A stretch of 63,144 nt of DNA, counting the filler, from Jimgerdemannia flammicorona (taxonomy: Eukaryota), in assembly GCA_003990765.1 (NCBI GenBank). It is 2 parts of 2 records of this genome, joined end to end, with 100 filler letters (N's around TTAATTAATTAA, not from the genome) between each part and the next. Parts side by side here need not be neighbours in the genome. Positions count along the whole stretch, not along the records: positions 1 to 31,526 come from RBNJ01000390.1; 1 more part is not named here. One strand, written 5' to 3'. This document shows positions 10,951 to 38,724 of the stretch, piece by piece. Below the pieces are notes generated by a model that was not told the origin of the DNA, did no database searches, and saw nothing but the letters and a program-made list of their open reading frames with translations. The position numbers and the translations under genes were made by a program. Position 1 is the first letter of the stretch. Every line of letters begins with the position of its first letter.

Positions 10951-10954
<4 letters not shown>

Positions 10955-15991: not shown

Positions 15992-18900
15992 TTAGAGCTG
16001 TAGTTCCTTCCTTTGCTGGGAGGTGAGTGTTTCCATGTAGTCCTGGAGGGCTTCGCGTGCATTCTTCAGAGCTTCTTCTTTTTCCCAGGTGGTATCATGG
16101 GTGGGGTAACCCTTCCACTTGATCAGGAAAAAGCACTTGACTGTTTTGGGATATTTGCAGACCTTGTGGTCAAGTACTTCCTCAATTTCGAATTCCTCAT
16201 GATCATTGATCCTAATTGGGGATGGTGGTGGAACTGTACACTCAGGGAATGGATTCTCATAGTAGTCCACCAATTGGCTGATATGGAATACTGGATATAC
16301 TTGGATATTGTGGAGAAGTTGCAACTTATAGTTGACTTCACTGATTTTTTCCACAATCTTGTATGGTCCAATTCTTCTAGTATGGAGTTTCTTGGCTGGT
16401 TGTTGTACCAGGGTGTCTGGGTGGAGGTGGTCTGTTCTAAGCATGACCATGTCACCAATATTATAGGAGGCTTCTCTTCACTTTGAGTTCACATACTTGG
16501 TCTGGTAGTCTTGTGCTTCTATGAGAGCATCTCTTGTCATTCGCATAAGATCAGAAATAGTCTCGGCCAGATCTTGGACTGCTGGGACTGCTGATTTTGC
16601 AGTAGTACTTGGGGTCCTTGGGTGTTGACCATGGTTCAGGAAGAATGGAGTCTTCTTTGTGGAGGTTTGCTGACTATTGTTGTAGGCAAACTCAGCATGG
16701 GCTAGGTACTTGTCCCAATCATTTTGCTTGTAACAGCAGAAGATGCTAAACATCTGTTTGAGAGTCTTGTTGGTTTGCTTAGTTTGACTATCAGTCTGAG
16801 GGTGGTAGGTAGTAGAGAACTTCAGCTTGATTCCATGGAGAGTGAAAAATACCTTCCAGAAGTTGCTTGTGAACTTGGCATCTTGATCAGATACAATGGT
16901 GCTAGGCATACCATATAGTCTGAATACTTGATTGAGGAAAATCTCAGCAATCTCTGGTGCTGTAGCAGTGATCTTGGTGGGTACAAAATGGACTTGTTTA
17001 CTTAGACAGTCTATGAATACCATGATGGCATCTCATCCTGCCTTGGTCTTGGGGAGTTGGACAATGAAGTCTATTGCAATCTGGTCCCAATTGTGACTCG
17101 GGATAGGCAAGGATTACAGGAGTCCTGCTGGTAGCTTGTTACCACTTTTGAACCTTTGGTATATCTTGCATGAGGCCACAAAGTCTTTGATATCCTTGGT
17201 CATCTTTGGCCAGTAGAACTCTCTTGAGAGGAGGTTGTAGGTCTTTTCAAAGCCAAAGTATCCTGCTGCAGGAGTATCATGGAGTTCCTGCATGATCTTG
17301 AGTCACAAAGTATCATTGTTGGGTACAACCACTCTGCCATAGTCCCTGTAGATAAGTCCATCATGGTAGGTGAATCTCTTGGCCATTTGCCTCATGGGTT
17401 CTGGAACCTCGGCCTCTGGGTCTTGGTAGAATTGAAGGAAATTCATCAGGGAGCTGTCTTGCTGGTAGCCATCCTTGATCATTTGGGTAAGGTCTCTAAT
17501 TACTTTGACCATGAAGACAAGTTCATCTTCTATGTACCTAGAGAAACCATCAGCCACACGATTGATTTTGCCTGGGATATACTTGATTTCTATATCAAAG
17601 TTAGCAATATTTCCATCCAGTGGGCTTGTCTGTGGGTCAGCATAGGCTGTGTGTGAATATACCGCAGTGCATAGTAATCAGTGTAGGCTACAAATGGCTA
17701 TCCTAGGAGGAAATGGCGCTATTCCTGGAGTGCAGTGATAATAGCTAGGAGTTCCTTCTCATGGGTGGTATATCAGGTCTCAGCTGGCTTGAGCTTTTGG
17801 GAAAGGTAGGCCACTGGGCAGTCTTCTTGACTGAGTACTGCTCCAATAGCAATGTCAGAGGCATCTGTGGTCAGAGTGAATGGTCTGGTAGGGTCAGGTG
17901 CAATTAGTACTGGGGCCTTGGTAAGGAGTCTCTTGAGATGGTCCATAGCCAGGGTGCATTTGGGGGTCTATTCAGCTTTGATGTTCACTCCTTTGTGGGC
18001 CAGACTGGTTAATGGAGCTGCAATAGCAAAGTATCCTTGGATAAACCTTTAGTAATAACCAGCAATACCCAGAAAGCACTGGAGTAGCTTGAGGGTAGTA
18101 GGGATAGGGATATCTTTAAGGGCTGATACCTTTCAGGGGTCCACATTGATACCTTCAGCAGAGATGATGTGTCCTAAGTACTCAATCTGGTCTTGATAGA
18201 ACTTATACTTGCTCATCTTGGCATAGAGCTGGTGTTCTCATAGGAGGGTCAGTACTTGTCTGAGGTGGGTATAGTGTAGCTCTACTGTCTCACTGTAGAT
18301 TAGTATATCATCAATATACACAAGGGCACAGATGTTGAGGAGTGGTCTAAAGATATCATTCATCAGATACTGAAATGTTACTAGTACATTGGTCAATCCA
18401 AAAGGTATGACTTGGAACTGGTAGTGTCCAAACTGTGTTTGGAAAGCTGTCTTCTCAATGTCCTTCTCATCAATGAGAATCTGGTAGTAGTCATTTCACA
18501 AATCCAATAGAGAAAAGGTCTTGGCCTTGAAGATTTGGTATAGCAACTCATCAATCCTGGGCAAGGCATACCGGTTCTTGATAGTGATCTTATTGAGGGC
18601 TCTGTAGTCAATACACATTCGCAGAAAGCCATCCTTCTTCTTGATAAATAGAATGGGGGCTCCAAATGGAGAGTGGCTGGGTTCAATATATCCTTGGACC
18701 AGTAGTTTGGTCAATTCATCCTTGAGAGTCTTGAGCTCAGGTTGGGCCAGTTGGTAGATACTCTTGTATGGGAGTTCAGATTCTGGAATAAAATCAATTC
18801 TATGTTGGATTTGGTGCTTGGGTGGAAGTCCTTGAGGATCTTGGAATATATCTTGGAATTCTTCAAACAGTTCTTGAGCTTCTATTGGAATTGGGCTGCT

Positions 18901-21900
18901 TGTAGCTTCAGTGACTTCTTGTACTATACAGATGAAGTAGGTGTTTCCCTTTTTTCAAGAGAGTCTCTTTATTTGAATGGCAGAGATGATTTCGATTCTT
19001 TGGTGGTTGGTACCTTCCTGGGGTGTCAGGGTGATCTTTCTGCCTTTGTGGGTCAGGTTAACCTCATTGGTTCTCCAGTTGATATCTGGGTTGTGCTGGG
19101 TCAACCAGGCTTTTTCTAAGATAATATCTTGTCCTAGGAGATCTACAATGCTGAAGTCCAACTTCTCTTGATATTTGCCAATCTTGAGCAAAAGGTCTTC
19201 ACAGATCTTGGTCAATGGTGCAGTCTTTCCATCACTAAAGGTAACACTTCTTTTCTCAGTAGTGGGTCTGCTTTGGGCTCTGATCCTCTTGGTAGTCTTG
19301 GTGCTGATGTAGTTTCTGGTAGCACTACTATCAAGCAAGACATTGACATTTTGTCTGTGAACTTGGCCTGTGAACTTGATGCAACTGTCCTCCTTCTTGA
19401 TGGTATTGAGCTCTTCATCCTCATTATTGTCCCAATTGCTGTCAGTCTCCTCGAAGTCAGTTTCTCCCCACCCTTCACAAGGAGGGTTATCTTGTTTGGG
19501 TTCCTCAGTCTGTTGAGCTTGGCGCTTCTCGGATTGAATTTTGAAAACTTTGGAGAGGCATGCATGGTATTCACCAACATGTTCCATGCAGTACATTCAA
19601 ATGGAATGAGGGCATCGTCCATATGGTGCATAACTATCTGCAATTCTCTTATACCAGTTTTCATCATCTTCCTTCATGGTAGTAACCTTTTGACTGGGAG
19701 GTTTGTTGGTAGATCCAAACCCTTTCTTGCCACAATCTGTTTGGGAGAGTTTGGAGACTTCTTCAATGGTGAGATCTTGACAGATTTCTTCAATAATTGC
19801 TTGGGCAATTCTTTGGCCTGCTTTGACTTCAAATGATATGTCTCCAAAATTTTGCAAGATGACACAGATTTCGCCAGTAAATCCTTAGTCAACTACTCCT
19901 CCTCCTAGTCCAATGTTGAACTCTTTGGCTAGGTTGCTTTGCTTAGCAAGGCAGATATATGTTCCTTTGGGGACTTGCATTGCAATTCCTATTTACACTG
20001 TAGTATTGGTACTTGGTGGGATGGTGAGGTCTTGGCTGCTGTAGAGGTCATATCTAGCATTAGTTGGGTGGGTCTTAGTGGGGATGGTAGCCTTGTACCA
20101 TATCTTCTGTACTTTGATGATATTCTCAGGGGTTTTCTTTTCTGGACCTTCTCCAATGACAGTAATGTTCTAGTTACTGGGTTCGCCTGATCTGTTTCTC
20201 TTCTCAGGGCATTTGACTGAGATGTGTCCTGCCTTCTTACAGATGAAGCACAATTCCTTTTTATGGAGCTGCTTCTTTTCATCCTCAGTAGGAGGTCTGG
20301 GTCCTCTGGGGTTTCGCTGGTTCCTTTGATCATTCTATTGATCATATCTTTGATCATTTCTCCTGGTAGGATTTCTCCTATCTTGGTTATCCTTCTTGTG
20401 TTCTTGATTTCCTAGGGCTTATACAGCAAGGATTTTGTGAGCTCTTCTTTGTACTTGGGCAAAACACCATGAGTAGTAGGGACATCCTTGGGGAAGATCT
20501 TGTTCCTTGATCTTCTGGGTGAGCCAGTCTGGTAGGGCTGCAAAGAGATAGTTGGCTCTGGTACCATTGATGGCCAAATTGTTCTCCTGATAGGTAAGTC
20601 CAACAGTTTTGAGATAGGCATCCATTCTGGTGGCAAAGGTCTCTAGATCTTCTTCGCCATTCTTGTGGAACTTCATCTGGGATAGTTTGTTCCAAGTTTC
20701 TTATATGTAGGCTGCATTTTGGAATTTGGTCAGTAGCAAGACCTTGAGTCCTGGGCCTGCTTCGTAGTCATCCCAACCTGGTCTATTGTTGGTAGGTACT
20801 TGTCCAATGACTTGGGGGTGGGCTTCTCAGATTACTGAGTGTTGTTCCAAGGTTTTCCAGAATTTGGCTACTGTTCCTATAAAGAATGTGGCTACTGTTT
20901 CTACTTGTGCTGCTGATGTGGCAAATAGTTGTTGGAGGGTGTTAATCTGGTTATTGGTGAGCATTCCTATAGACATTCGGTTGTCATTCCATTGGTTTGC
21001 TTGGTAGCCTATGTCAACTGCATTGATGAAGTTTTCGATATCACTGTTTTTTTCACTGAATGTTGGGATTCGCAAGGTCTTGGTTAGTTTGTTCTGTTCA
21101 GCAATCTGTCCTACTATTCCTGCTAGTGCTGCTAGCTGGGTAGTCAGTGCTGCAATGTTGACATCTACTATTGTGTTGACTATTGGTAGTGGGCCTATTG
21201 GGGTAGATTCTCCTGAAGATTGTTCTGCTTGGTGGGGTTGTAGTGCTGTATGACTTGGAGTTACTTGATTTCCGGATATTAAGTCAAAGAGTCCTGTGAG
21301 AGAGGGTAAACCAAACCTCTGTATAGATAGTTGAGTTGGTTCTGGGGTCTGATCTTCTTGACCTGTGGTTCCTTGATAAATTCCTAGGCCTGCTGTTCCT
21401 CATTGGCTATCATTAGACTGGTAATCTGTAGAGTCTTCATCTGACTCCCTTTCCTGATGAGATAGTATGTCCTTATACTAACTAGGTCCTTCAAAGAGGA
21501 TATTAGTCTCTGGCTGGATAGATGGGCCTGCTTCTTGTTCAGCAGTAGGGGATGGTTGGCCTGCTTGCTCATTCTCATACCTAGTTATGGTAGAGGCATA
21601 GTATACAACTAGCCTGTAGTAGAGGGAGGTCTTGGTAGGGGTATGATGGTATCTATCAGAGGTAATCCACTTAGCAGCTGCTTCTCTTGCAGCAGGGGGT
21701 GTGATATAATCTAGAAAATCCTGGGTGGCTGCAGCAGTAGATTCTGGGGTCCTAGTGGTTCCAATGTATCCTCAGAGGAGTTCGTAGAACCTATGGTGGC
21801 TAACAATATTTCTAAGTCCTGAGTGGTATGTCCTAAAGACCTGGTATAGATCTCTGTAAGCCTGGTCAATTACAAGCTGGCAGGTCTCTGTGTCTGTAGT

Positions 21901-21960
21901 TTCCTGGTACCACCTGGTCCTAATGGCAAGGACTTCTCTGGCTCTGGTTTGAGAATCCAC
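15992..21960 (-). pseudogene. Gag-dUTPase-Pol polyprotein (capsid, CCHC knuckle, dUTPase, aspartic protease, RT, RNase H, integrase, chromodomain); degenerate
   Basis: CFICKKAGHISVKC knuckle (~20207-20250). [42 protein letters not shown] and YIDD. IN YHPQTDSQT. Chromodomain EEFEIEEVLDH...FLIKWKGYP...TWE. Gag through RT lie in one frame, with a net frameshift before IN. The start codon was not found. Confidence 0.93.
19708..20121 (-). pseudogene. Trimeric-type dUTPase domain inside the retrotransposon polyprotein
   Basis: Translation IKVQKIWYKATIPTKTHPTNARYDLYS...YICLAKQSNLAKEFNIGLGGGVVD*GFTGEICVILQNFGDISFEVKAGQRIAQAII...TDCGKKGFGST. All five dUTPase motifs are present, and the deviations are explicable by single transitions. 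Confidence 0.92.
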
Positions 21961-22046
21961 AGTTGATTCTGGAGGTAACTCCTGTCCAAGGTTGGTCTTG
22001 TTCCAACTTCAGGAATGTGTTCTTTAGTGCCTTCTTGGTTGGTAAA

Positions 22047-22058
22047 CCGCTGCTACCA
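22047..22058 (-). other. Primer-binding site, initiator tRNA-Met type
   Basis: TGGTAGCAGCGG lies 3 nt inside the 5' LTR and resembles the TGGTAGC start of tRNAiMet PBSs. Confidence 0.7.
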
Positions 22059-22061
22059 AGT

Positions 22062-22870
22062 TATAATAACTCTTACTTCTACCCCTCTCTTATCCTTTGG
22101 ATAATTAGGGAAGTGGACTATTACTTAGGGACTTAGTACACAATGTGTACCAAGAAGCCTTCAGTTTGAGAAAGCACTTGCTTATAAGTAGTTGTAGTGA
22201 CAGTGTCTTATCTTTCAAAGATCTTTCTCTAGTTTGCCTTTTATTTCAAAGGTCTTTCTCTTGTGCCCTATTTCGAGGGTCTTGTTCTTTGCTATATACA
22301 GACTGAATTTGCCTTAGAATTCAGGTTCAATGGGTTTACTTAAGTCTTTGGGGATTTATATACTGATATTTATTCTGGCAGAAGTTAGCTAGGCTTTTGG
22401 AGTTTAGTCAGAAACACTAGAGTCACTTAGATGTCATTACTAAGACTCAGGGGAATGTATATATATGGGGGGGGGACTTGATTCTTATATTAAGGACTAA
22501 ACTAAAACTGCTTTATTTTGGATAGAAACTGGGGGATATTTATACAAGTTGGTCTATGATTTCTGACTAAGTATGAGTGACTAATTTGGTAACTATAATG
22601 AGGTTTGTGATCACAACCTTTGTCAGGTGGTTTTTGGTAAAGAATATCTTTATGATCAGGACCTCAATTACTAGGCAATGATCAGCAGCTATGGTAACTG
22701 TTGCTGTGGTACCAGTTGTCAGAGATAAGCTAAATATTATTTTCCACATCATTTGTTTGTATCATTATTCATATACTGTGCTCAATCATATGATGACGTC
22801 ATTGCTGGGTTACATGATCGTTCATGATCACTTGTCATGTCCCATCTGTTCACTTGTTCATTCTATTATA
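22062..22870 (-). repeat. 5' LTR (termini mutated to TAT...ATA)
   Basis: 809-bp direct repeat of 13698-14506. Confidence 0.95.
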
Positions 22871-23006
22871 AAGAGGGAGGGGGGGGGAGAAGAGAGGCTC
22901 TATATAAGATTGGGTAAGAGAGATCTTTATACATATATTAATTTTAGTATAATATAGATTAGAGAGTAATAAAGTGAAAGTCTAAGTGACTATAAAAAAA
23001 AAAAAA
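22871..23006 (+). mobile_element. LINE copy B, segment 3: 3' UTR and poly(A)
   Basis: AATAAA...AGTCTAAGTGACTAT(A)n matches the copy C end AGTCCAAGTGACTAT(A)n. Confidence 0.88.
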
Positions 23007-24142
23007 GGACTGACCATTCTCATATAAAGCAGAGAGCCTATTATTAGACTAATTAACTAGAAAGAATTTACATCTAGCTAGTAGCTTTATTTCAGTAGAC
23101 TTCTTATTTACTAGATGTTCTGCTGGTTCTGGGGTCCTAAAATAAACTTCTGATATATATATAAGATGCTGATTATTGCTATAGGTTATTAATAATCTAA
23201 AAAAGTTATTACAGAGATTGAGCAATATATTTTACCTTAAAGTCTTAAACTAGATCTTAGGAGTTCTTGAGGTTAATTAGTAGTTTTTAAGTAGTATTAT
23301 ATTCAGAGTAGCCTATTTATTTGACCAGATATTCAGGATTATGATAGTAGATTCATTTATCAAGAATTTTCTTAACTTTATACTTAATATGGTCTTCAAT
23401 AATTACAAAGACAGATGGCTTGGAAATTTGACCAGAGTAGAGTAGTGACTGATTTTAGATCTTGAGATATAATATATGAAAGACTAGATATACTTTCATA
23501 GTTTCAGATAGCTTAAGACAATAGGAGGATACAGAGACTTATTTAGTAATCTTGAAGGATTCAATATACTTAGGTTGAAATTTATTCAATAAATGATTAA
23601 CTTGAGATTATATCTTGAGATTCTCAGTAGATAGTAGAATTTGATTACTAATAATATAGGTAATATTATAGTATTTTTTGTTAGTATACTTGACTTAATA
23701 CTATTGAGTCTTTTGGAGATTCATAGTAGTAATCTTGAGTAGTTCATCTATTTTGTCTATGAGATTCTTAGTAATAGAGACTTATATTTAACTATTTTTT
23801 CTGAAAGAGACTAGACTTATAGAGATTTCAGAATCTTGACTAATACTTCCAAATAAATTAAATAAATTCAAATTAAATTAAATTGAGAGTCATTCAAATT
23901 GAATCAAATTGGAGATTTTTTTTGATTTAAATCAAGTTTAAATCAAATCAAATTTGAATTAAATTGAGAGTTTGATTCAATCTCTATTTTTCAAAATATA
24001 ATAACTTGATAAAAAATATATCCAAATTTAATGATCTTTAGCTTGTTAGATCCCTCTTATATAGAGAAATCTAATAAGTTAAAGATTATTAAATTTTATA
24101 TATATATATTTTTTAAATATTCTAATAGAGTATATTAGCTAT

Positions 24143-24147
<5 letters not shown>

Positions 24148-24183
<36 letters not shown>

Positions 24184-24838
24184 TTTTTTTTTTTTTTTTT
24201 TTTTTAATAGACTTGAAGTTCTGTAGATTTTTATTAGAAGAGAATCTAGACTATATAGGTCAAAACTCTCTTCCACTACCTCTTGAGCACTATATCTCAA
24301 TTAAACCTAGGCTAGCTATTGTCTAATAGTTTAATTATACTAGATATAGTAGGGCTTATATTAATCCATATCTTATTCTATATACTATACTCTCTCTACT
24401 ATTAGAGAGAAAACAACTATATACTAATGATCAAAGACATATATCTGAAACCTCAATATATATATATAAGACTATATTCAAGTCAAATAAAATAGTCTCT
24501 ATTACTTCAAATAATATAATAGATAAAGAAAAATCCTCATCAAAGTACAGAATAATAGATAAGACCTCATTCTTCTCAATAAGATAAGTAGAGGACTTAT
24601 ATGTAAGAGAGTCAGCTATAGAATTCCTATAAATAGTATTTAGTAATATTATATAATATATAATTTTTTTAAAAATAATAATAAAGATAATTAGTCAGAA
24701 ATCTATATAGAAATATCTATCAAAATTTCTATATTTAATTAGTATAATTATTATCTACTATACTAATAGTAAAACTATATGAATACTTTTCAAAAATAGC
24801 TAGTAAAAAATTATTATCAACTATTATATATATATTTA
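24148..24838 (-). mobile_element. Degenerate minus-strand copy of the poly(A)-tailed element seen at 30331-31526; interrupted by the PLE and continuing from 29328
   Basis: Poly(T) at 24148-24205 is followed by AATAGACTTGAAGTTCTGTAGATTTTTATTAGAAGAGAATCTAGACTATATAGGTCAAAAC. This matches the reverse complement of 31460-31520 with mostly transition differences. Confidence 0.75.
24587..24838 (+). repeat. Left copy of a ~250-bp direct duplication flanking the PLE
   Basis: AGTAGAGGACTTATATGTAAG...ATATATATATTTA is near-identical to 29328-29583. Confidence 0.92.
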
Positions 24839-25174
24839 GAGGAGGAAGAAGGCCCAGCAGGAGCCAAGAGAGCGAACCCAGAGCCAGTGTCAAAGCGAAC
24901 GGAAGACATGTGGAAAGGTATGTATAAGGGGGACAAACAAAGAATGTAACCGAAAATGCATCAGCTGTTTATTGCCATGTAAAAATGTGGTCCTTATATA
25001 CAAAATATGATGTCCCAAAAGGGAGGACGCACCATAACTCAGGGCGAACCGAATTAAGAACCACATGACCACCAGAGATAAGCGGAGATAAAGGGGGAGC
25101 CAATCCCAGTTGCAGGATAAAAATCACAAACAAACACAAACAAAACAAATCCAAATCGAGATTAAAAAACATCC
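24838..25174 (-). repeat. Inverted copy of the distal 337 bp of the pLTR
   Basis: Reverse complement of 25326-25666 and 28990-29326. Confidence 0.95.
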
Positions 25175-25667
25175 TTGCTCCCTTCGGGGTCTCACGCTCG
25201 CTCCGGGGTCTTGGCCTTACTCCGCTCCCCTCCGCTGCCTTTGGCCCCTTGCTTCGCTCGGGCTCGCTGCGGCTCGCTCCGTTTCAGCCTCACCCCTTGC
25301 TCGCGCTCACCCCTCCGGGGTCTGCGGATGTTTTTTAATCTCGATTTGGATTTGTTTTGTTTGTGTTTATTTGTGATTTTTATCCTGCAACTGGGATTGG
25401 CTCCCCCTTTATCTCCGCTTATCTCCGGTGGTCATGTGGTTCCTAATTCGGTTCGCCCCGAGTTATGGCGCATCCTCCCTTTTGGGACATCGTATTTTGT
25501 ATATAAGGACTGCATTTTTACATGGCAATAAATGGCTGATGCATTTTCGGTTACATTCTTTGTTTGTCCCCCTTATATGTACATGCCTTTCCACATGTCT
25601 TCTGTTCGCTTTGACACTGGCTCTGGGTTCGCTCTCTTGGCTCCCACTGGGCCTTCTTCCTCCTCTG
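25160..25667 (+). repeat. 5' pseudo-LTR (structured 181-bp module, TATA-like TATATAAG near 25500, AATAAA at 25527, start of ORF1)
   Basis: Direct repeat of 28825-29327. Confidence 0.92.
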
Positions 25668-26815
25668 CTGTACCGCCTGCCCTCAGGGCCTCCGTCCTCG
25701 TCGATGAGCTCATGGATGAGGTACTTCCTCCTCCTCCTCCTCCCCCTGCCTTCACCCCCACCACTGTCTCCTTCGAGACCTACATCTCTTCTGCTATCCT
25801 TTCCCTCCCCCTGGACCTTTGTCCTTCTGGTTGTCCGCTTCTCTCTCAGTTCCGGTCGGTTCTTGCCCTCTCTGCTAAGGAGGCTCGTCTCTGTCATGAT
25901 GTCGACATCGTCGCTCCACCTGCCATCTGCTACTCTGTTCTCCCCGAGGCCCGCCACCAAGCCCTCTCCAAAGAGATTCATGCTGCCACTGCCACCGCCA
26001 AGCTCGCCACCGCTGATGCCGCCACTGCTTCCGCCGCCACCGCTTCCGCCTCCTTCCAACGTGCCTGTGCCACTTTCATGGCCTTCACCTCCTCCCGCCT
26101 TTTGGATACTGCCCCCTTCTGTGGCTTCGCCATCCAAGACATTCCTTTGGTCGCCGCCGACATTAACGTTGTATGTCATTTCCTCCTCACCGGCACCTCT
26201 TTTGTTGCTCGCCTTCATGAGCAGGAGTCATCATGTGCCGCCGCTGCTGCTCGCGCTGCCGCCACTGCTCCTCTGCCTGCCTCCCCCGAGGTTTCGGTCT
26301 CCGAGGCCATCCATGCCGAAGCTCGCGCTGCTGCTCATGCTGAGGTTCGTTCCTTCGCCACTGCTGCCGCCAAGGCCCCCTCCAAGACCCCCGCCAAGAC
26401 TCCCGCCCAGCCCAACCAGGCTTCGTTGGCCTCTTCTCAGTCCCCCTCCCCCGCCAAGGCTTCCTCCTCCATTCCCCCTGCCCCTAAGCATGGCCGCCAA
26501 CTTGGTTCTCGCCCTGTCAGGGCCTGGCCTTACGCTGTCTGCTCCAGTCACCTCCACCATGCCTACTGGTACCTGGCCAAGTCCATCTGTCCCCATGGTG
26601 GTGTTCCTCGCGCTGCTGCCCCTTCGGCTGCTCGCTCGCCCTCGGCCTCCTCTACCAGTTCCTCCTCCGCCTCCTCTCCCTGTGCCCCTGAATGTAAGGG
26701 CTACACAAAAGCCTGTGGCCACAAGGTCTGGCACTCTGATGGGGTGTGCTCTCGTTCGTCGAGTTCACCACCTTCAAAAAAAGTCAGAGGGAAGGGGAAG
26801 GCCTCCCACTCTTAA
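25595..26815 (+). CDS. PLE ORF1, ~406 aa; Ala-rich helical middle, Cys/His clusters and basic C-terminus; function unknown
   Basis: Uninterrupted ORF (track 25532-26815). The ATG at 25532 is not present in the other pLTR copies (ACG/ACA), whereas ATG 25595 is conserved in all three and follows the TATA-like box. Confidence 0.75.
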   Translation: MSSVRFDTGSGFALLAPTGPSSSSAVPPALRASVLVDELMDEVLPPPPPPPAFTPTTVSFETYISSAILSLPLDLCPSGCPLLSQFRSVLALSAKEARLCHDVDIVAPPAICYSVLPEARHQALSKEIHAATATAKLATADAATASAATASASFQRACATFMAFTSSRLLDTAPFCGFAIQDIPLVAADINVVCHFLLTGTSFVARLHEQESSCAAAAARAAATAPLPASPEVSVSEAIHAEARAAAHAEVRSFATAAAKAPSKTPAKTPAQPNQASLASSQSPSPAKASSSIPPAPKHGRQLGSRPVRAWPYAVCSSHLHHAYWYLAKSICPHGGVPRAAAPSAARSPSASSTSSSSASSPCAPECKGYTKACGHKVWHSDGVCSRSSSSPPSKKVRGKGKASHS

Positions 26816-26901
26816 ACTTCCCCCCAGTGTGGTTCTCCCCTGGTGTCCCCGTCCCTTCTCGGATTCTGTTGTTGCTTCTGGTGCACCCTGAGTGGTTCCT
26901 C

Positions 26902-28830
26902 ATGCTGTTCCCCCTTCGTCTTTCCCAGTTGCTTGTCCCGAACTTTCGGGTTTATTCTTCTCTTGGAACACTTTTGTCTCCTCCTTTTTCTTCAGCTGAC
27001 TGCCCCCTTTCTCCCCTTCAAGTCTTTGTCTTATCCTTGGGTCCTTGCTTTGTTTTTCCTGCGACTCCCTCACAATTCTCCTTCACTGATCTGGCTCATC
27101 TAATATGTTTTCGTCGTGCTCTTGACCTTGCCATTTTCTTTCAAGATCGTGGTGAGATGCCCTCTCGCTATTTTGTTCCTAGCGATTGGGTCCCCCCTCC
27201 CAATGTCTCTTTACACTGCGTATTCCTCGACATGGCCTGCTCACTATCCGTTCCTGGACGAGCTCGCTCTTGCTTGGTTTCGGACCATGCCATGCGTACC
27301 ACGCTTAAATCGGTCAAGCAATTGCCTATGCATTTGCTCACAGTCACTAATAAGAATCAGGGTTTTGCACTTATTCCTAAGTCGCTCTACCTTAATGGCC
27401 TTTCTGCCCTCCTTCAAGCCATGGCTTATGAGCCTAGTGCTCTTGGATTGGATGAGATTCTCACTCTTCTTCGGGTTTCTCTGACTCATGCTAGATTGCT
27501 TTCGGATTCCCTGCACGCGAACCCTATTTTTAACTTCTTCCAGGACTCTTTGTCCTTCTCAGATATCTCTCTTCTGGTTTTCTATGCTCTTCCTAAAGTT
27601 CACAAGCCTACTTTGGCTTGGTGTCCTATTACGGCTGCCTACAGTTCTCCTACCACCGAGATTTCGAAGTGGTTATCCCACTTCTTTCTCTCCTGGATGG
27701 CTCTCTTACAACACCGTCTTGGGCCTGAGTATACTATTCTTCATGATACTCAGGAGCTCGCCCATCTCTGCTCCACCATTGTGTCTGTTCACCGTTTTTC
27801 CCATTTGGCCTCTGGTGACTTCTCTTCCTTCTATACTGCTATTCGTTTTGATGAGATCGATGATTGCCTTCGCTTCTTGAGTTCCTTGGTTTTTCCCTTG
27901 GATTCCCCAGTTTCGCTGGCTTCCATTGTTGAGCTTACGCTCCTCGTCTGTGGCTCTAATTATTTTGAGTCAGCCCTTGGCTCCTTTCACCAGACTTCTG
28001 GTATTGCCATGGGAACGAATTGTGCCCCCACTCTTACCAACCTCGTTGGCCTGGCCCATGAATTGTGTGCGTTACATGATATTACTTCACCTCTTTCCAT
28101 TGCGTTCCAGGCTGGGGATATCTTCTTTTGCTGATACATTGATGACTTTATTGCCTTCGCTGTTGCTGGTATTGATATCCCTAGTGTGTTCCTGGGTGTC
28201 TACTCTCCCCATCATTCTATTACTTGGGTGTGCGGTATGACTAGTATTCCCTTTTTGGACCTTTCCATTTCTCTTTCTCCTTTCCGAACTGTTGTTTATT
28301 CCCATTTTTCCCGTTCCCAATAGTTCCCTGACTTCTTGTCCAACCATCCTCATCGCACTCTTCTTGAATGTGTTCGTGGTGAGGCTCGTCGTCTTGCACT
28401 ATGCTGCTCCCATCATTCTGATTGGATGTCTGCTGTTCAGGTTCTTGGCAACTTCGTGGTCCATCGTCGTGCCTACCCTATTTCTATCATTCGCGATCTG
28501 CTTACTTCTGTTGAATGGTCTGTTGTTCGCTCTTCCCTCCTCTCTCCCCTTTACCCCCCCTCCCTTCCCTCTCTCCCTCCTTACCCTATCTGTACCCCCT
28601 CTTCTTTCCCACCCCCGATTCTCGTCGTACCATTTGATTGTGCTCGCTGGGTTGCTCAACGCCCTGATACTGTCCTGCACTCTTCTCTTTCACGCCATGG
28701 ACTTTCATCTCTTTCCTGACACCCTCTGATTGCTCGTTCGCGTCTTTCTTCTGTTTCTTCTTCAATCCATCGCTCTCGTTTTGCGTTTTCGTCACCTTCT
28801 GGTGCCTCCAGTTCTGCCGGAGAGGATTAA
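26902..28830 (+). pseudogene. PLE reverse transcriptase (~642 codons) with three in-frame stops and no endonuclease domain
   Basis: FYALPKVHKP..WCPITAAYSSPT, SGDFSSFYTAI, FHQTSGIAMGTNCAPTLTNL, *YIDD (likely CGA>TGA at 28132), IPFLDLSI and SNHP thumb-like region. One frame throughout, with stops at 28132, 28321 and 28717. Confidence 0.9.
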
Positions 28831-29327
28831 AAAACATCCTTGCCCCCTCCAGGGTCTCGCGCTCGCTCTGGGGTCTCGGCCTTACTCCGCTCCCCTCTGC
28901 TGCCTTCGGCCCCTCGCTTTGCTCAGGCTCGCTGCAGCTCGCTCCGTTTCGGCCTCATCCCTTGCTCGCACCACCCCTCCGGGGTCTGTGGATGTTTTTT
29001 AATCTCGATTTGGATTTGTTTTATTTGTGTTTGTTTGTGATTTTTATCCTGCAACTGGGATTGGCTCCCCCTTTATCTCTGCTTATCTCTGGTGGTCATG
29101 TGGTTCCTAATTCGGTTCGCCCCAAGTTGTGGCGTGTCCTCCCTTTTGGGACATCGTATTTTGTATATAAGGACCACGTTTTTACATGGCAATAAACGGC
29201 TGATGCATTTTCAGTTACATTCTTTGTTCATCCCCCTTATACACGCCTTTCCACATGTCTTCCATTCGCTTTGATACTGGCTCTGGGTTCACTCTCTTGG
29301 CTCCCGCTGGGCCTTCTTCCTCCTCTG
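28825..29327 (+). repeat. 3' pseudo-LTR
   Basis: Begins GATTAAAAAACATCC (overlapping the RT stop codon) and ends ...GGGCCTTCTTCCTCCTCTG. Confidence 0.92.
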
Positions 29328-29583
29328 AGTAGAGGACTTATATGTAAGACAGTCAGCTATAGAATTCCTATAAATAGTATTTAGTAATATTATATAATAT
29401 ATAATTTTTTTAAAAAAAATAATAAAGATAATTAGTCAGAAATCTATATAGAAATATGTATCTATCAAAATTTCTATATTTAATTAGTATAATTATTATC
29501 TACTATACTAATAGTAAAACTATATGAATACTTTTCAAAAATAGCTAGTAAAAAATTATTATCAACTATTATATATATATTTA
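29328..29583 (+). repeat. Right copy of the ~250-bp flanking duplication
   Basis: Near-identical to 24587-24838 (a few substitutions and one 4-bp indel). Confidence 0.92.
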
Positions 29584-30330
29584 AGTCTAAGCTAAGAATA
29601 ATCAAAATTAAAAATAATAATAATAATATAAAATATCTATCATTAAAAGATAAGAGTAAGTAAAAACTAAAATATAAGTCTAAAAATGAGTTCTATTTCT
29701 TAAAAAGTTATTAGAATATATTAAAAAGTCTCAAATAATATTATAAGAATTATATAAGCTATACTAATATATAAATATATATAATAATATTTAAAATAAA
29801 TTAAATTAAATCAAATTTGACCCCAATTCAATTTGAGTATTAATTTAAACCTTAATTTTCAAAATTCAATAACTTAATAAAAATATATCTAAATTTGACA
29901 AAATTTAGCTTATTAAATTTTTTTATTTAGAAGAATTTAGTATAATAAAGATTATCAAATTTAGATATATTTTAGTTGAGTTATTATATTTTAAAGTTTA
30001 ACTCTTAATTTTAAATTAATTAGATCTCAATTTGATTCAAATTAAATTAAATCAAATCTTAATTCAATTAAAAAATTCTAATTCAAATCAACTTTAATTT
30101 AATTTGATTTAAATTAATTCAATTTATTTAGGAATATTATCTCTGATAATAAGTCTTATATATATAATGAGACCATTCAATTTTCTAACAACCAAAGGTA
30201 AAAACAAATAATAAATAAAGAATATAATTTACTTATCAAGAATATATGAAATCTAATATCTCTTCTATCAAACTGATAAGCAATCAGATCATATTAAGTA
30301 TATAAGATGTATAAGAGTAATAGAAGTAGG

Positions 30331-31526
30331 AATGCCCCTTTCTCCACTACCTTACTGGTCACAAGATTTGGTAGGCAACCTTCCGAGTCCCCTTTCCCCT
30401 ATTATTACCCCCTCTACCTCGGGTTGGTTTGCTGTGCCTGCATGGGCATGGTGGGAGGAGGGCAATGGTGATGAGTTGCCCCTTTATCGGTGTCAGATCG
30501 GTGTCTTTTCCACTTTTTCGCGGTTTCTGGTATCTTCAGCTGTGTCTGGAGTGCATCTGTTTTGGTGCGGCACCTTCTTCCTTTTGCCATTGCCAACAAG
30601 GTGCTGTCTCGGTATATCTCGGGCTATGTAGAGAGTCAGCCGACCTTGGGCGTCAAGTGCTCAGTGTAGGTTACCTGCAGGTTCTCGGTGCCTGTGGTGG
30701 GGCCCTCTGGCTTTGGCGAGCTTCCTGGCGAGTGCAGTTCTAGTATAGGTGACTACTTTTCAGGTGATGTCGGGATGGGAGGGGAGATGGCCGTCACAGA
30801 TAGGAGGAAGGGCGATTATGGTAAACCAGTAGGGTGCCAGGCTGGGGGCGGTCATCGGGGCTGGGGTGGACAATATTTCAGTGGGGCCTTTCGATTGGCT
30901 GGTAGGGGGTGGGGTGGTGCAGGGGCCGGTATCCTGGCTGTACTCAACTGGAACCGGGAGCTGACGCGGTAATGCGATCGAGGCCCACAGGCTTGGGGAG
31001 TGGGACCTTCCTCATTTGGCAGTACCTGACTGGAACCGGGAGCTGACACGGCAACGTAATCGAGGCCCGCAGGCTCGGGGAGTGGGAGTGGGGTCTTTTC
31101 AGGCCCTAGCTCATGCATAAGTCCTTTGAGGAAGGTGCTGCATATAAGTCCTTTACTCACCCGCTTTGAATCTATTTTGCTCTCTGTTGGTTGGTTGGGG
31201 GGTTTTTTCTTTGCCTCGGGCTTTCTTTTGGAGTTCGGGGGGCTATTCTTTATTCAGTCCCGGTGCTGCTAGATCTGACGCATAGGTGTGCTCTTGCGTG
31301 TAAATGATGATCCAGCCCTGGTGAGCAGACAAGTCTAGTCTATGTCGTTGGGGTTGACGTAGCCAGTGTTCGACAGGCATAACTGGAGTGGTGGGACTGC
31401 TGGACAATTTAGTAGCCTAGGTTAATGGGGGGATATTGTTTGGTGGGTGGTGGGGGAGGGTTTTGGCCTATATAATCTAGGTTCCCTTCCAATAAAAATC
31501 CATGGGACTATGAGTCCGTTAAAAAA
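30331..31526 (+). mobile_element. ~1.2-kb GC-rich poly(A)-tailed element without recognisable RT (non-autonomous retroelement or long LINE 3' UTR); 5' boundary approximate
   Basis: Ends AATAAAAATCCATGGGACTATGAGTCCGTT(A)n. Internal ~60-bp direct repeat (30947-31005 / 31029-31087). Related copies at 24148-24838 and 58825-58871. Confidence 0.6.
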
Positions 31527-32860: not shown

Positions 32861-34703
32861 TTTAGGTATACAAGAGAGGGGTTGTGGATGGTTTGTCTTC
32901 AACAATCGAGCGAACAGTCAAAGTGGCCACAGCTCGGAATTTCGGAGTACCCCCAGTGATCCCATCACACACTAAACCTTAATTTCGAGGACCAACCAAC
33001 ATCACCAGTGACGTTACTTTGACTAAACAGAAAGCGCCGATAGTGATAGTCGGCGCGAATTATTTTTAGATTGGCCACACATTACGGAGCTGAGCCGTGT
33101 GGTTTCCTGAACAGTGAGCTTCACTGCTGTGCTCTGAGCCATGCCATAGTATCTTCATTGTGTAGTTTGGCTGAGCACCGAGCTTTTGCCATGTAATTTG
33201 GCTGAGTGCAGTATTCAAAGTCACTTATTTAACTATAATATTATTAGTTTAAATTAATTGATATTAGAATATACTTAACTATATTTATATTTATAGAAAG
33301 TAATATATTAAAGTACTTAAATTAATTATAATTTTGATAATTAGAAAAGTATTATTTTCTACTATTATAATAGCTATTAAAAAACTATTATTAAAATTTT
33401 TGATAAAAGATTTAATATCAAATATTTAAAAAGAAAAAAGTTATAAATATTTAATAAAGATTTATACTAATAATTTCTTATATTTATAATAAATATAATT
33501 TTTATAATATAAGAAAATATAGATTAAAGTTAGTATATCTTTAATAATTTATAAACTAATTAATAAGTTTATTTATTTAAAAATTTAGAATATTTTATAT
33601 AGCTAAAATTAATATATATATTACTTTGATTTAAATATATTTTATTAAAATATTATCTAATTTTGAAGCTATAGAGTTTATTTATTTATTTATTATTTAA
33701 AAGTTATTATTTAAACCTTCTAATAAATTTAATATTATTAAAATTATTTTATTTTATTTTTATTAAAATATAATAAAAATATTTATTTAAATTAAATTTA
33801 TATTCAATTTGACTAATTCAAATAGAAGAATCTCTAACTTAATTTATTTGATAGTATTATTATATATTTTATAGTTATTTTAACTAGAGATCTATTTTTA
33901 AAATAGTTATATTATATAAAAATAAGAGATATACTAACTTTAAAATATTATATTTATCTTTTATATTAGTATAATATCTTTTATTAATAGGGGGTTTCAA
34001 AGTTAGTTATAAAATTCTAAATATTGAAAAAAATTTAATCAATCAGATTTAATTTAGAATTCTATACATATCTGACTGAGATTTAAACTTTCTTATAAAT
34101 TAGTTTATCTATAAAAAGATATATATTAAATTATTATTGAAAATATATCTTCTTCTATCTATTATAGTAAAGCTTATAAAGTGTATAAGATATCTAAAAG
34201 GTAGGAGAATGATAATATTGATAGAGAACTATTCTTAATGAATATTATTTTTAACTAAATTATATTAGAGATAAATTATATTAGATAAAAGAGAGATATA
34301 GAGAAGTAATAAAGCAGACTCTTTATAGAGAGATAGTTGGCCTTTAAAGGAAGCTAATATTTATTATTATAATAATACTGATATATATCTGGATAAGACT
34401 ATTAGATCTCCAGATTATCTATATTAAGGCTTAGAACTAAAGTGAGAATATAGAAGAGAAGATTTGAGCAAGAGATAGAGATAATATAGAGATAATAATT
34501 TAGAGTATACTTTGGGCTTTGTTCTTTATCAACTAATTGAATTTATATTAAATGAAAATTCCTATCTAATAATAGCTATTTTTAAAAAAAGATACAAATA
34601 CTAGGATATTCTATACATATCTAGTCTTTACTAATAGAACCTCATCTTAGCTGAGGTTTACAGCTGATAACTTAGGAGATAATAATATTACTGAGAAACA
34701 GAG

Positions 34704-34736
<33 letters not shown>

Positions 34737-35429
34737 GAAATAACAATAATAGCAATAATACTAATAGTAATAATAATATTAATGATAGTAATAATAGTAA
34801 TGATATTAATAATAATAATAATAATAATAATAACAATACTAATAATACTTCTCTTAGCTCTGAGAGGATACCAGTGAGATAGAAAGATGAGAAAGTATGT
34901 GGCTGGGTGATAGGAAAGAAGCCAATAAGACTTAGAGTATCTGACTACTCTCAGAAGAAATTAAAGCTCTTATTGAGTAATGTTTTTTTTGATAGAAAAT
35001 ATAGCAAAAAATGAGAGAGCAAAGGATGCTCTGAACTTCATAAAGAGAAAATAAATAGAGAAGTATAAACTAGCAAAAAAGATATTAGTAATAGAGAAAA
35101 TAAAGGCTAAGACTGAGAGAGCTTTTGTAAAGACTTTATTGATAAAATTATTAAGCAATCTGAGTATATTATAGGAGGATATCTTAGAGTAGCTAAAGGA
35201 TTTGTAAATATAAATTGATTTATATAAATATAAATATATTTATTATTAAAAGTATTAGATATAAATAAGCTTATATAAATTATTATTTTTTCTAATATTT
35301 TAGAGTGAGATATTTTATAAATCTTTAGTAATATTATCTTTTTTATATATATTGTATTTTCAAAGTTTTGCAATATATCTCACTCAAGGCCTCACTAAAC
35401 TTTCTAAGGCCTCACCATACTTTCCAAGA

Positions 35430-36200
35430 CCTCACTGTACTTTCTCTTTTCTAGTCTCATTTCAATACTTATTACTCATATATACTTCTTATTTATTTTA
35501 GTATCTCAACTATACTTTTTGAAGCCAGCAATTTAGTCAGATATATTTTAGATCTCTTTTCTAACTTTATCACTCAATTTAAGACCTTATTGCACTTTTA
35601 TGACCTTACTACATTTTCTTATTTCAATATATCTCACTCATTTTAGTACCTTGACTATACTTTCTACATATTTCAGCATCTTGACTATACTTTTTAGAGC
35701 CAGCAATTTAGCCAGATATATGTATATACTTTAGATCTCTTTTCTGACTTTATTACTCAATTTAAGATCTTATGTACTTTTCTAATCTCACTGTATTTTC
35801 TTATTTCATATATCTTACTCATTTCAGCATCTTGACTATACTTCTTATATATTTCAATATCTCAACTATACTTTTGGAATCAATAATTTAGCTAGATATA
35901 CTTTAGATCTCTTTTCTAGTTTTATTACTCAATCTAAGATCTCATATACTTTTTTGATCTAACTTATTTTCTTATTTCAATATATCTCACTCATTCTAGT
36001 ATCTTGACTATACTTACTTATTCTAACACTCTAACTATACTTTTCAGAGCTAGCAATTTAGCCAGATATACTTCAGATCTCTTTTCTGATCTCACTACTC
36101 ATTCTAAGATCTGATTATACTTTTTAAGACTTTACTGCACTTTCTCTTTTCTGGTCTCTCTCATTTCAATACATCTTGTTTATCTAGCACCTCAACTATA
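35430..36200. repeat. Degenerate tandem repeat, ~4 copies of a ~170-185-bp unit
   Basis: Anchor GATCTCTTTTCT recurs at 35551, 35734, 35906 and 36076, each preceded by a variant of CAATTTAGCCAGATATA. Confidence 0.8.
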
Positions 36201-38399
36201 CTTTATTCTACTCTATTTTCAACTACTATCTCTTTATATACCATTTCTTCTATCTAGGAATAAGATAATATATAGTTTTATACTAATATTTCTTCTACTT
36301 ATCTGGAAGTAAGACAACATATAGTCTTATACAGATATTTTCTACAAAATATTTTTTCTTCTCTTAATATCTAAATACTACCTTTATATTAATATTCTCA
36401 AAAAGCTCATAATAAAAAAAAAGTCAAAATATATATAAAATAGTTGAAAAAGATAAGAGAATATAATACTCAGATCTGAGATACATATATAGAATTTGCA
36501 GTCCAATAATTCACTATAAGAAGTAACTTTAAGCAGATCAGACTCTGATACATATTTGAGCCCTATGGACACCCTAGCTCTATACTATAGTACTGTACTA
36601 GCAGTACTACAAAGCAGAGCCAAGGAGGTAGTAAAGCCTAGCAAAAGTTCAAACTAGTACTACAAAATAAGATTGGTGGAGTTAGTAGAGGAAGTATGCA
36701 AAATTTATAACTCTCCACCAGTAGCAAAGAGCAGCTCCAAGCTACAAGCTAGTGCAGGAGTCCAGATTAGAGAGAGTATGCAAAATTTGTAGCCCAATGA
36801 CCTACTGTGAAAAATATCTTCAAGCAGTTGGACTCTAGTACAGATTGGACTCTAGTGTAGATTGAACTCTAGTATAGATTCAGGTCTTGTGGACATTCTG
36901 GCTCTATGCTATAGTATCATACTAATAATACTATAAAACAGAGTCAAGAGATCAGTAGAGTCTAGCAAAAGCTAAAAACTAGTACTACAAAATAGTTGTC
37001 TAACTCTTATAAAAGACTGTCTAATCTTTACAAAAAGACTGCCTAGCCTAATCTTTACAAAACTGCTCCATCTGTTAGTTCCAGGTCTTGATGAGTCTAT
37101 TATCTATTATGAGTACAACTACTATAGTATTTGAGCTCTCCTCAAAGATAATAATACCATAGAGGTCATGTGGTTGAAATAGGATAGCCATGTTGACTGC
37201 AAACAGGACCTCAAAACCATAGATGAGATTATACTAGATATTACTACTGTTCTCTCAAGTTGGGTCCTTCTTCTCTAGAATATAAAATATTACTAGAGTG
37301 ATATTACTATCTATATATATAGGTAGAGAAATATTATACTCAATGTATTCCAATGTGATACAAGTATATGGTTGAGTGAACTCTTAGCCCAGGATCTCAT
37401 ATTGTTAGATAGTACTAGAGAATATCTATTCTTTATCTAGCTCTAGAAGTCTTAGCTTGAAAATCTACTGAAATAAACAGTATCTTATCAATTCTTTTTG
37501 TATATAAGTGGGCAGAAACTCTCAGACTATATCAAAAAAAAGTCAAGCTTCTCACCTCATATGGTATGCTAAATTGTATCAAGAATATACATATAGCTAT
37601 ACTGAGAGTACTATTAAGCTAGTCTGCTGTTTACTCTAGCAATCTGCTCAAAGAACTCTAGATCATGGCTACCATTACTGTACAGATCATGTTATGCTTA
37701 CATGTAGCTTATTCTTTGACAATACTTTTAAAGTTTCAATAAGAATATAGAATTCTGTATATTTTTAGAAATTTAACAAAAATATATTAGTAAAAAAAAT
37801 CTCAAAAAAAAAAAAGATAAATGTGAAGGATTTTGGAAAAAAACTCTAGAAAATCCACTCTTTGCCAATATTGTAGTATATCTAATTCTCATCCAAACTC
37901 TCTCTCCTTACTTTTATACTCTCTTTTTCCTATCACTTGATATTTGATATAATTCTTGCAAATCTTATTAATATAGTAATAAAGCTTATTACCATAAAGA
38001 TTTCTTATCACCATCACAATAATCTCTCTATATTTATTAATAATGATATAGTTCTCTTTGTTATTGAGTACTCCAGTAGGCCAATGAACTTCTTGATTGA
38101 GAATAATTGGCTCTGATTAGAATATAGATCTCAAGCCTTAATAGTAATACTGATATTGTTCATATTAAATAACTTAGCCTTAAACTTTCTAATTTAATTA
38201 GATACTGAATATGATCAAACTTAGGTAACTTTGAATTCTCCTCTATAGTGAAACTGAGCCTTGATCTGAGTAGTGAACTGAGTTAAGTATGCAGATAGAT
38301 TATATGTATATATATAAGTATTATATAAGAGTTTTTAGGAAAGAATATATAAAAATAAAGTTAAATAAAATACAAAGTAAGTATTCAGAAAAAAAGCAT

Positions 38400-38475
38400 A
38401 AGAATAAGTTGTATGCAGATAAGTTGCATGCAGATGAGTTATATGCAGATGAGTTATATATAGATGAGTTATACA
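38400..38475 (+). repeat. 15-bp tandem repeat (GATRAGTTRYATRYA), ~5 copies
   Basis: Directly visible. Confidence 0.8.
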
Positions 38476-38724
38476 AGATTACTCATAAAGGCTTGCTTCT
38501 AATCTTTTTGAAATCTCCACTATATAATATATTGATTCAATAGCTCAGTCACCAAAAGTATATCTTATAACATTCTCCAGCCTTTCTTCATCTTGATCAG
38601 ATATTGCAAATAAAGTTGACAGATCTTGTTAAAGAGCTATAGACCTTGAGAGAAAGAGAAATAGTATAAAATTAACTTAGTCATATTATGGGAATTTAAA
38701 TATAGTGACAAAAAGACAATCTAT

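Follow-up and report, generated by a model that had tools for sequence, protein, structure and literature searches.

The arrangement of direct and inverted repeats at insertions of Penelope-like elements (PLEs) is published as the standard structure of Penelope elements that encode an endonuclease (EN) of the GIY-YIG type. In passages of Craig et al. 2021 (PMC8557442), a PLE is typically found inserted as a partial tandem, so that pseudo-long terminal repeats (pLTRs) arise, and in many cases an inverted copy, truncated at its 5' side, stands at the 5' end; the cleavage properties of the endonuclease are there considered very likely to set these tandem and inverted structures. According to excerpts of Arkhipova et al. 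2013 (PMC3846280), a typical Penelope consists of an open reading frame (ORF) between two pLTRs plus an adjacent inverted pLTR, with a 15-bp overlap and an 8–10-bp target duplication; palindromes of 18 and 38 bp at pLTR 5' ends were also reported, for which self-priming was proposed, while the EN-deficient PLEs of fungi and protists were placed outside this organisation. Here we describe a PLE that combines the two, located at positions 24838–29327 of a 63,144-nucleotide stretch (hereafter the window) joined from two records of the Jimgerdemannia flammicorona assembly GCA_003990765.1, of which positions 1–31,526 come from RBNJ01000390.1.

Fungal PLEs lacking an endonuclease (EN−) have been reported only at chromosome ends, between telomeric repeats, in the excerpts available of PMC13159263 and PMC4522978, the latter dealing with a telomeric PLE of Mycosphaerella graminicola; the Coprina and Athena elements were treated by Gladyshev and Arkhipova 2007, as referred to in passages of PMC8557442. 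The same passages report EN− families of the PLE-X type with genome-wide or 28S-targeted insertion. As to the reaction itself, Frangieh et al. 2024 (PMC11167929) showed that the purified Poseidon protein of Anolis carolinensis (PAc) cuts and extends both strands of an AT-rich target, and that reverse transcription starts, for both strands, at one internal site lying 111–118 nt into the ORF, without homology to the target. In a limited literature search we found no published description of an EN− fungal PLE with direct and inverted pLTRs and a target duplication. The original prediction for this locus had proposed a programmed, endonuclease-independent integration route in place of a random inversion. 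From the single copy, the programmed character is not supported as stated, nor is the route a new one, since direct and inverted pLTRs, a 15–38-bp palindrome and a target-site duplication (TSD) are the published structure of Penelope (passages of PMC3846280 and PMC8557442), and internal insertion by an EN− element had already been reported for PLE-X and for MjPLE01 (PMC8557442, in part). What is unusual here is that the Penelope structure occurs in an element of probably fungal origin that lacks the endonuclease, that the site is internal and that the duplication has about 25 times the usual length.

A repeat scan, self-BLAST and direct reading of positions 24838–29327 all gave the order A'(inverted)-B-A-[ORF1-RT]-B-A, where RT is the reverse transcriptase, in agreement with the layout first proposed; with its flanks, the full anatomy is TSD-A'-B-A-ORF1-RT-B-A-TSD. 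The arm A' (24838–25174, minus strand) is an inverted 5'-truncated copy of pLTR module A, whose 3' terminus points left; taken as reverse complement, it is 94.4% identical to the A copy at 25326–25666 (341 columns) and 94.1% identical to that at 28990–29326 (337 columns). It is followed on the plus strand by the 5' pLTR, composed of the short repeat IRa (GATTAAAAAACATCC, 25160–25174), which forms both the last part of A' and the first of the direct pLTR, of module B (25175–25325; 151 nt, 70% G+C, pyrimidine-rich) and of the 5' direct copy of module A (25326–25667), which begins with IRb (GGATGTTTTTTAATC), carries a TATATAA motif at 25500 and contains the start of ORF1. Downstream of the coding region, and again on the plus strand, are found a 3' copy of IRa (28825–28839), overlapping the RT stop codon, a 3' copy of module B (28840–28989), between the repeat halves of the 3' pLTR, and a 3' copy of module A (28990–29327), whose terminus ...CCTCCTCTG points right. 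The two direct pLTRs (IRa, B and A; 25160–25667 and 28825–29327) are 91.7% identical over 508 columns, with a unit period of 3,664. Direct repeats of 503–508 bp and an inverted arm of 337 bp thus give the element the partial-tandem pLTR organisation of PLEs.

Four copies of the 15-mer GATTAAAAAACATCC are present in the window (25160 and 28825 on the plus strand, 25326 and 28990 on the minus strand), against an expected count of 0.00 in 100 shuffles, and all of them stand at the borders of module B, two per strand. This confirms the earlier placement of the inversion junction at a 15-bp inverted repeat bracketing B. As the repeat brackets B also in the non-inverted 3' pLTR, it is part of the unit and not a by-product of the inversion; moreover, A' closes with the very 15 nt by which B is preceded, which puts the inversion junction within the repeat and without filler. 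The description of the repeat as built into the element was therefore right, although a palindrome at the inverted junction is an already known Penelope pattern.

The outer ends of the element are equally defined. The right one reads ...CCTCCTCT plus a G at 29327, and an identical G follows A at the junction between A and the element body (25667/25668); the left arm opens with AGAGGAGG at 24838, after a T rather than a C. Leaving aside 1 ambiguous nt, the element stops on both sides at ...CCTCCTCT, and the terminus ...GGGCCTTCTTCCTCCTCT(G) is present in all three A copies, so that the prediction of outer junctions at one and the same pLTR base, enclosing inverted repeats of about 337 bp, proved correct within this single nucleotide. 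No second copy of the element was found in the window, either by sensitive blastn or by tblastn with 150 related RTs, which gave no match outside the element. Short weak matches at 30389–30488, to the right of the insertion, were examined as possible element pieces and dismissed.

The element is flanked by two copies of an AT-rich sequence, the left one of 252 nt (24587–24838; 16% G+C), whose base 24838 (A) is shared ambiguously with A', and the right one of 256 nt (29328–29583). Over 256 columns these differ by 2 substitutions and one 4-nt indel, their similarity begins and ends exactly at both element ends, and no further copy of the 252-bp stretch was found in the window. Since it abuts both ends of the insertion, the flank repeat is by definition a TSD; a pre-existing tandem repeat was considered and rejected, as the insertion would have needed to strike precisely at its junction. 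We infer an empty site of the form ...GATA/AGTAGAGG...ATATTTA/AGTCTAAG, slashes marking the two breaks, in which the 252-bp stretch would have been single. This duplication of 252/256 bp had not been noticed in the first reading, nor had the dead state of the RT frame described below. It also bears on whether the structure was built by two independent insertions, with a 5'-truncated 337-bp reverse copy landing beside, or before, a second insertion. Severe truncation at the 5' end is frequent among insertions of PLEs (PMC8557442, in part), which would suit such a sequence of events, yet one duplication brackets the composite and none brackets either of its parts, the parts meet inside the 15-nt repeat without filler, and decay is equal in all copies. 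We give this explanation next to no credence.

ORF2 (26902–28830, plus strand; 642 codons including the broken positions) codes for a PLE-type RT, 47% identical to its closest relative in the word-indexed search, a protein (P0001) whose sequence ends at the ends of its contig; no nearer family member came up in any search. Word-indexed protein searches retrieved 2 and 5 relatives, and an exhaustive profile search, built on this RT and two relatives, retrieved 16,149 proteins at E ≤ 0.001. With Pfam, the RT gave a weak RVT_1 match only (E 0.021), and a search of solved-structure sequences gave no match at E ≤ 1. The family alignment displays a nearly invariant DKNLG motif (NKNQG in the window copy), as well as LPKxHK, D..S.YT, GIAMGTNCAP and YIDD, the latter four being motifs that we take to be typical of PLEs. 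The available part of PMC8557442 gives DKG and its variants as a diagnostic feature of PLEs, and a DKN motif is named for Coprina-1_Alen in that of PMC13159263. In a language-model atlas, P0001 adjoins eukaryotic clusters with PF26215/RVT_1, mainly from rotifers. Most relatives are 520–680 aa long and their C-terminus coincides with the end of the window ORF, which closes 12 codons past the last residue aligned to P0001. By the type of its RT, as read from these alignments, the element is a PLE; as a class, PLEs have telomerase RT as the sister group of their RT.

The RT frame terminates, as first stated, at position 28830, with a TAA (28828–28830) lying inside IRa. Three earlier in-frame stops had however been overlooked, a TGA at 28132–28134, immediately preceding the YIDD motif, a TAG at 28321–28323 and a TGA at 28717–28719. 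No frameshift was observed, and a single frame, from 26914 to 28791, accommodates the alignment of all 150 related proteins. This copy of the element is dead, its RT frame being broken.

A scan of metagenomes returned 45 loci, all 21–34% identical and none a member of the family of the window element; when these loci were compared with themselves, tandem arrays and palindromes at contig ends were seen, with no arrangement comparable to A'-B-A. One of these contigs (L014, 1–11371) carries a distant PLE as a head-to-tail array of about 3.5 units, each of 3,196 bp and about 100% identical. Three others (L004, L016 and L017), of 3.2–3.7 kb, have identical first and last 123–127 nt, pointing to a tandem or to a circular assembly. 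A further locus (L026, 2336–4954) is an endonuclease-encoding (EN+) PLE with an 872-codon RT-GIY-YIG ORF and a minimal hammerhead-like motif upstream, at about 819.

A six-frame Pfam scan of 24838–29327 at E ≤ 1 retrieved no nuclease domain and only the weak RVT_1 match, and GIY-YIG or any other nuclease family was absent from all 144 relatives scanned among the 150 best (P0143–P0146, P0148 and P0150 were left out), while in the positive control Pfam detected GIY-YIG at E 3.5e-6 in the metagenomic EN+ PLE mentioned above (L026). The absence of GIY-YIG claimed by the original prediction is thereby corroborated, and the element is predicted to encode no endonuclease.

A hammerhead ribozyme in the pLTR is reported, in passages of PMC8557442, for all PLEs except Naiads and most Chlamys. 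In the window element, Rfam returned no match at E ≤ 1 over positions 24000–30000, and a search for the hammerhead core motif by regular expression found none in any A or B copy. The same expression finds hammerhead-like motifs in five metagenomic PLE loci (L004, L006, L021, L026 and L032), whereas Rfam, run on eight PLE loci, reported no hammerhead and missed those of L004 and L026, which remained unreported at E ≤ 0.01; because of these two misses, the regular expression provides the better negative. A hammerhead may have been lost by decay.

Of ten common telomeric patterns, a set that may not include the host's own repeat, none was found in the window except for a 14-nt TG-rich run at 14092, and no reverse-complement telomeric repeat of these common types was present at the 3' end of the element. 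This agrees, for the common motifs, with the first report that no telomeric repeats are attached. Both junctions adjoin unique AT-rich host DNA, and the element is 24.8 kb and 33.8 kb away from the ends of the window, with genes on both sides. The insertion site is internal and not at a chromosome end.

ORF1 (25532–26815, plus strand; 427 codons counted from 25532) is rich in Ala, Ser and Pro and is without any known domain, since no Pfam family was matched at E ≤ 1, and it showed no similarity to the N-terminal extensions of longer RT relatives. Its ATG at 25532, in the 5' pLTR, corresponds to ACG in the 3' pLTR (29197) and to ACA in the inverted arm, and looks like a product of CpG decay; a second ATG, at 25595, is retained in all three A copies. 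The common outer terminus therefore falls 72 nt or 135 nt inside ORF1. Compared with the internal start of Poseidon, a common end within ORF1 suggests that the terminus may be a site defined by the RT and not the RNA 3' end.

Taken feature by feature, the closest counterparts are Penelope and Poseidon, exemplified by Pen2a_Av of Adineta vaga. As far as the excerpts on these elements go, they likewise have an ORF between direct pLTRs and an inverted 5'-truncated pLTR, both outer ends being 3' termini. Where the inverted pLTR meets the direct one, the two share a short palindrome, of 15 bp in Pen2a_Av and of 18 and 38 bp in others. Within the pLTR lie a TATA-like motif and the opening codons of the ORF, and a target duplication surrounds the whole unit. 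From what the same excerpts describe, the window element differs in the lack of GIY-YIG, in a duplication of 252 bp instead of 8–10 bp, in a palindrome split by the 151-nt module B, in having two ORFs and a probably fungal host, and in that no 30–40-bp tail was seen and no hammerhead found. With PAc in vitro (PMC11167929) it shares the extension of both strands, a start common to both a short way into the ORF (111–118 nt there, 72–135 nt here), without homology between this start and the target, and an AT-rich target; PAc, however, nicks with its own GIY-YIG domain, whereas the window element encodes no nuclease and no stem-loop is evident at its end site.

The likeness to Coprina and Athena, as these are presented in the partial sources, lies in an RT-plus-thumb protein of about 600–640 aa without nuclease and in the probably fungal host. 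The family of the window element also has a DKN-type motif (NKN in this decayed copy), and a possible link to the Coprina/Athena clade is suggested by this motif and the fungal host only. Coprina-1_Alen of Ascochyta lentis (PMC13159263, in part) resembles it further in its length of about 4.5 kb, two ORFs, a disordered low-complexity ORF1 and direct repeats of a few hundred bp. In contrast with what the same sources say of Coprina and Athena, the window element is internal, has no telomeric repeats or hammerhead that could be found, and has an inverted arm and a target duplication. PLE-X (Chara, Selaginella) and MjPLE01 (kuruma shrimp) also lack an endonuclease and insert inside chromosomes (passages of PMC8557442), but they derive from EN+ clades (Chlamys, Neptune), keep the CxC motif and canonical hammerheads, and belong to plants, algae or animals; for neither do those passages describe an insertion of comparable anatomy. 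Finally, in twin priming of human L1 (PMC2837659, in part) a 3'-OH on the second strand also acts as primer, so that the 5' part comes out inverted and the target is duplicated on either side of the unit; in L1, however, the second priming is internal and variable and the parts are joined at chance microhomology, while the window element has the same terminus on both sides and a repeat that it carries itself. This likeness is one of mechanism only, and the window element is not a long interspersed nuclear element.

The explanation that best accounts for these features, and which we consider somewhat better than an even prospect, is the insertion of an endonuclease-less PLE in which two pre-existing DNA 3' ends were used as primers and the resulting cDNAs were joined head to head at the repeat. 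The duplicated 252 bp borders on A' at the left side of the insertion and on A at its right side, which implies that the two priming ends overlapped by that length. There would accordingly have been two 3'-OH ends on opposite strands, 252 nt apart, that of the top strand at 24838 and that of the bottom strand at 24587, set free without any nuclease of the element, by staggered nicks in very AT-rich DNA or by breaks in two sister chromatids. On each end the RT would begin a cDNA at one and the same template position, which could be an RT-defined site 72–135 nt into ORF1 or the RNA 3' end. The right-hand cDNA would comprise a full unit, followed by A and B of a second unit or of a second template, yielding the pLTR, whereas the left-hand cDNA would copy A only. 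The cDNA 3' ends, complementary over the 15-nt repeat, could then anneal head to head and extend each other, and fill-in of the separated strands of the 252-bp overlap would leave the duplication. The proposal that two genomic 3'-OH ends had each primed reverse transcription thus fits the geometry of the duplication, and two-ended priming is likely; its second part, a start at the RNA 3' end, is less secure, since the end may be an internal start of the kind described in PMC11167929.

A variant of the same two-ended target-primed reverse transcription would have the nicks made in trans, by the nuclease of another mobile element or by a host repair or structure-specific nuclease, in which case the insertion would not be nuclease-independent. 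Both edges of the duplicated target (24585–24589 and 29582–29586) read TA/AGT in the same orientation. The local AT-rich host DNA has 10 occurrences of TAAGT in 3,055 nt, so that both breaks falling between the As of this motif would be a coincidence of about 0.3% (about 10/3,055 for the second site), calculated post hoc, and hints at sequence-selective cutting. A PLE endonuclease, moreover, reportedly prefers AT-rich DNA (PMC11167929), and the target here has 16% G+C. Nevertheless, the element and its 144 scanned relatives have no nuclease domain, no other PLE is present in the window, a 252-nt stagger is far from the 8–10-bp duplications given for EN+ Penelope in excerpts of PMC3846280, and the motif has the same orientation at both sites although the nicks would be on opposite strands. 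All considered, a nuclease acting in trans seems to us unlikely. The TAAGT pattern would be better matched by blunt breaks at similar sites of two sister chromatids; capping of each break by the RT, followed by joining, would lead to the product that staggered nicks also yield.

Close to one of the breaks lies a TAGAGGA patch (24589–24595, plus strand), complementary to the terminal TCCTCT(G) of the element. It contains the sole AGAGGA/TCCTCT in the 3,055 nt of surrounding AT-rich DNA and is 3 nt from the right-junction break; in shuffled sequences, AGAGGA/TCCTCT fell within 10 nt of either break in 113 out of 20,000 cases, again a post hoc figure. By analogy with the pairing of telomere overhangs in Athena and Coprina, this patch could have tethered the template.

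The presence of pairable repeat halves at the inversion junction would suit also a snap-back, in which a cDNA 3' end at IRa folds onto the complementary half of the repeat and copies itself, thus producing the inverted arm. Indeed, palindromes at inverted junctions were read as signs of self-priming by Arkhipova et al. 2013 (PMC3846280, in part). Such a copy would have no reason to halt at the exact terminus of the unit, given that the A used as template continues into ORF1 at 25667/25668, and self-priming alone does not put a second copy of the 252-bp target beside the arm. For these reasons a snap-back appears improbable to us, more so than cutting in trans.

The differences accumulated by the repeated parts of the element are informative on its history. 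Private substitutions in the A copies number 7 in A', 8 in the 5' A and 13 in the 3' A, in a star-like pattern, and the 5' A carries, in addition, an insertion of 4 nt found in no other copy; between the two B copies there are 16 differing sites, every one a transition, and 1 gap. Altogether, the 44 variable sites of A and B are without exception transitions, about three quarters of them in CpG context as read from the triplets, while the CpG-poor flank duplication shows no transitions, two transversions and one indel. The observed/expected ratio of CpG is 0.66 in the element, 1.0–1.1 in the neighbouring genes and 0.10–0.15 in older repeats on the left. An identity of 92–94% within the element and of 99% between the flanks fits a single age under CpG decay targeted to repeats, and the star-like differences fit a simultaneous origin of the three A copies. 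One old, inactivated insertion is, on these sequence comparisons, the likeliest history.

This decay pattern weighs on a later rearrangement at the DNA level, by which B-A-ORFs-B-A would have been inserted first and a fold-back duplication of A would then have been mediated by the short inverted repeat. Short inverted repeats do seed palindromic duplications after breaks, and A' shows 15 differences from the 5' A and 20 from the 3' A, being slightly nearer to the former. On the other hand, the 13 private changes of the 3' A, set against 7 and 8, do not form a significant excess (chi-square calculated by hand, about 2.2 with 2 degrees of freedom), all three A copies appear equally old, and the arm stops at the terminus of the unit, in exact contact with the left copy of the duplication. 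We regard a rearrangement of this sort as very improbable. Slightly less probable still is an assembly artefact, in which the inverted arm or the duplicated flank came from misjoining of reads across repeats. The tandem and inverted structures of PLEs are known to trouble assemblies (PMC8557442, in part), yet A' has 7 private substitutions, the 5' A its private 4-nt insertion, and the flanks differ by 2 substitutions and a 4-nt indel. By these private differences, A' and each of the flank copies stand as separate sequences of the genome, an argument against a simple artefact, and the junction, in addition, coincides with a biologically meaningful repeat.

Several points nonetheless weigh against two-ended priming by an endonuclease-less element as set out above. 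Only a single copy is available, so that any habitual use of the repeat and the end base would be judged from one locus, and both the duplication by insertion and the assembly would depend on this one sequence. The source of two 3'-OH ends 252 nt apart is unaccounted for, as is the arrest of one cDNA right after the repeat, and the duplications and tails published for PLEs are of 8–10 bp and 30–40 bp, respectively, against the 252 bp duplicated here. An RNA stem around B, closed by the repeat, is only mildly favoured (z = −1.81; equalled in 9 of 200 shuffles), and RNA folding at the end site revealed no structure (z = −0.79). The TA/AGT sequence on the same strand at both breaks is not predicted by simple nicking of opposite strands, and the sole AGAGGA patch is on the strand that did not prime at the right junction. 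A single decayed copy is thus a lead for a family-wide survey and not a demonstration.

As for the surrounding DNA, the window alternates blocks of 18–30% G+C (22000–25000, 29300–30300, 33000–40000 and 62000–63144) with gene islands of about 50% G+C, and the PLE lies inside one of these blocks, in which weak, older AT-rich repeats, both direct and inverted, are also recognisable (23840–24100 versus 29780–30140). Further left, relics of a Ty3/Gypsy-type long terminal repeat retrotransposon occupy 14000–22000 on the minus strand, with an integrase core (16481–17032) and a retroviral-type aspartyl protease (18958–19596); their CpG observed/expected ratio of 0.10 marks them as far more decayed than the PLE. 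Positions 1–13000 have a G-rich plus strand (GC skew +0.33 to +0.57), a CpG observed/expected ratio of 0.15 and several minus-strand frames of 180–320 codons without Pfam match, and probably represent another old repeat family, with a pyrimidine-rich coding strand like that of the PLE. To the right of the element, a gene for a Y-family DNA polymerase (46165–48794, minus strand) codes for an IMS domain and a ubiquitin-binding zinc finger in at least two frames, presumably separated by introns, and is followed on its right by genes for a GH47 mannosidase, an isocitrate/isopropylmalate dehydrogenase and an FGGY kinase. The named relatives of the FGGY kinase, among the longer proteins to which the search was confined, all belong to Basidiomycota (31–45% identity), and the GH47 fragment has fungal relatives, most commonly in Ascomycota. 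Taken by themselves, the kinase relatives would point to a basidiomycete as the probable host, as a lead and no more.

The integration mechanism of PLEs is still open, and the example in this window argues against tying their structure to the GIY-YIG endonuclease, suggesting that initiation at the same site on both strands and head-to-head joining belong to the RT and its template. A stronger version, which we offer tentatively and think rather doubtful, is that the RT of an endonuclease-less PLE alone carries out two-ended internal insertion, capping two 3' ends from one fixed template start and joining the products through an inverted repeat carried for this purpose; the architecture of all PLEs would then be encoded by RT and template, in the same reaction by which Coprina and Athena cap telomeres. 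If this were true, the tandem and inverted architecture of PLEs would be a property of the RT and its template and not of the GIY-YIG nuclease, and internal insertion would amount to the telomere capping of Coprina and Athena applied to both sides of a break. The window copy shows, in addition, that elements believed to be restricted to chromosome ends can lodge internally, probably at breaks, which links telomere capping with break repair by reverse transcription.

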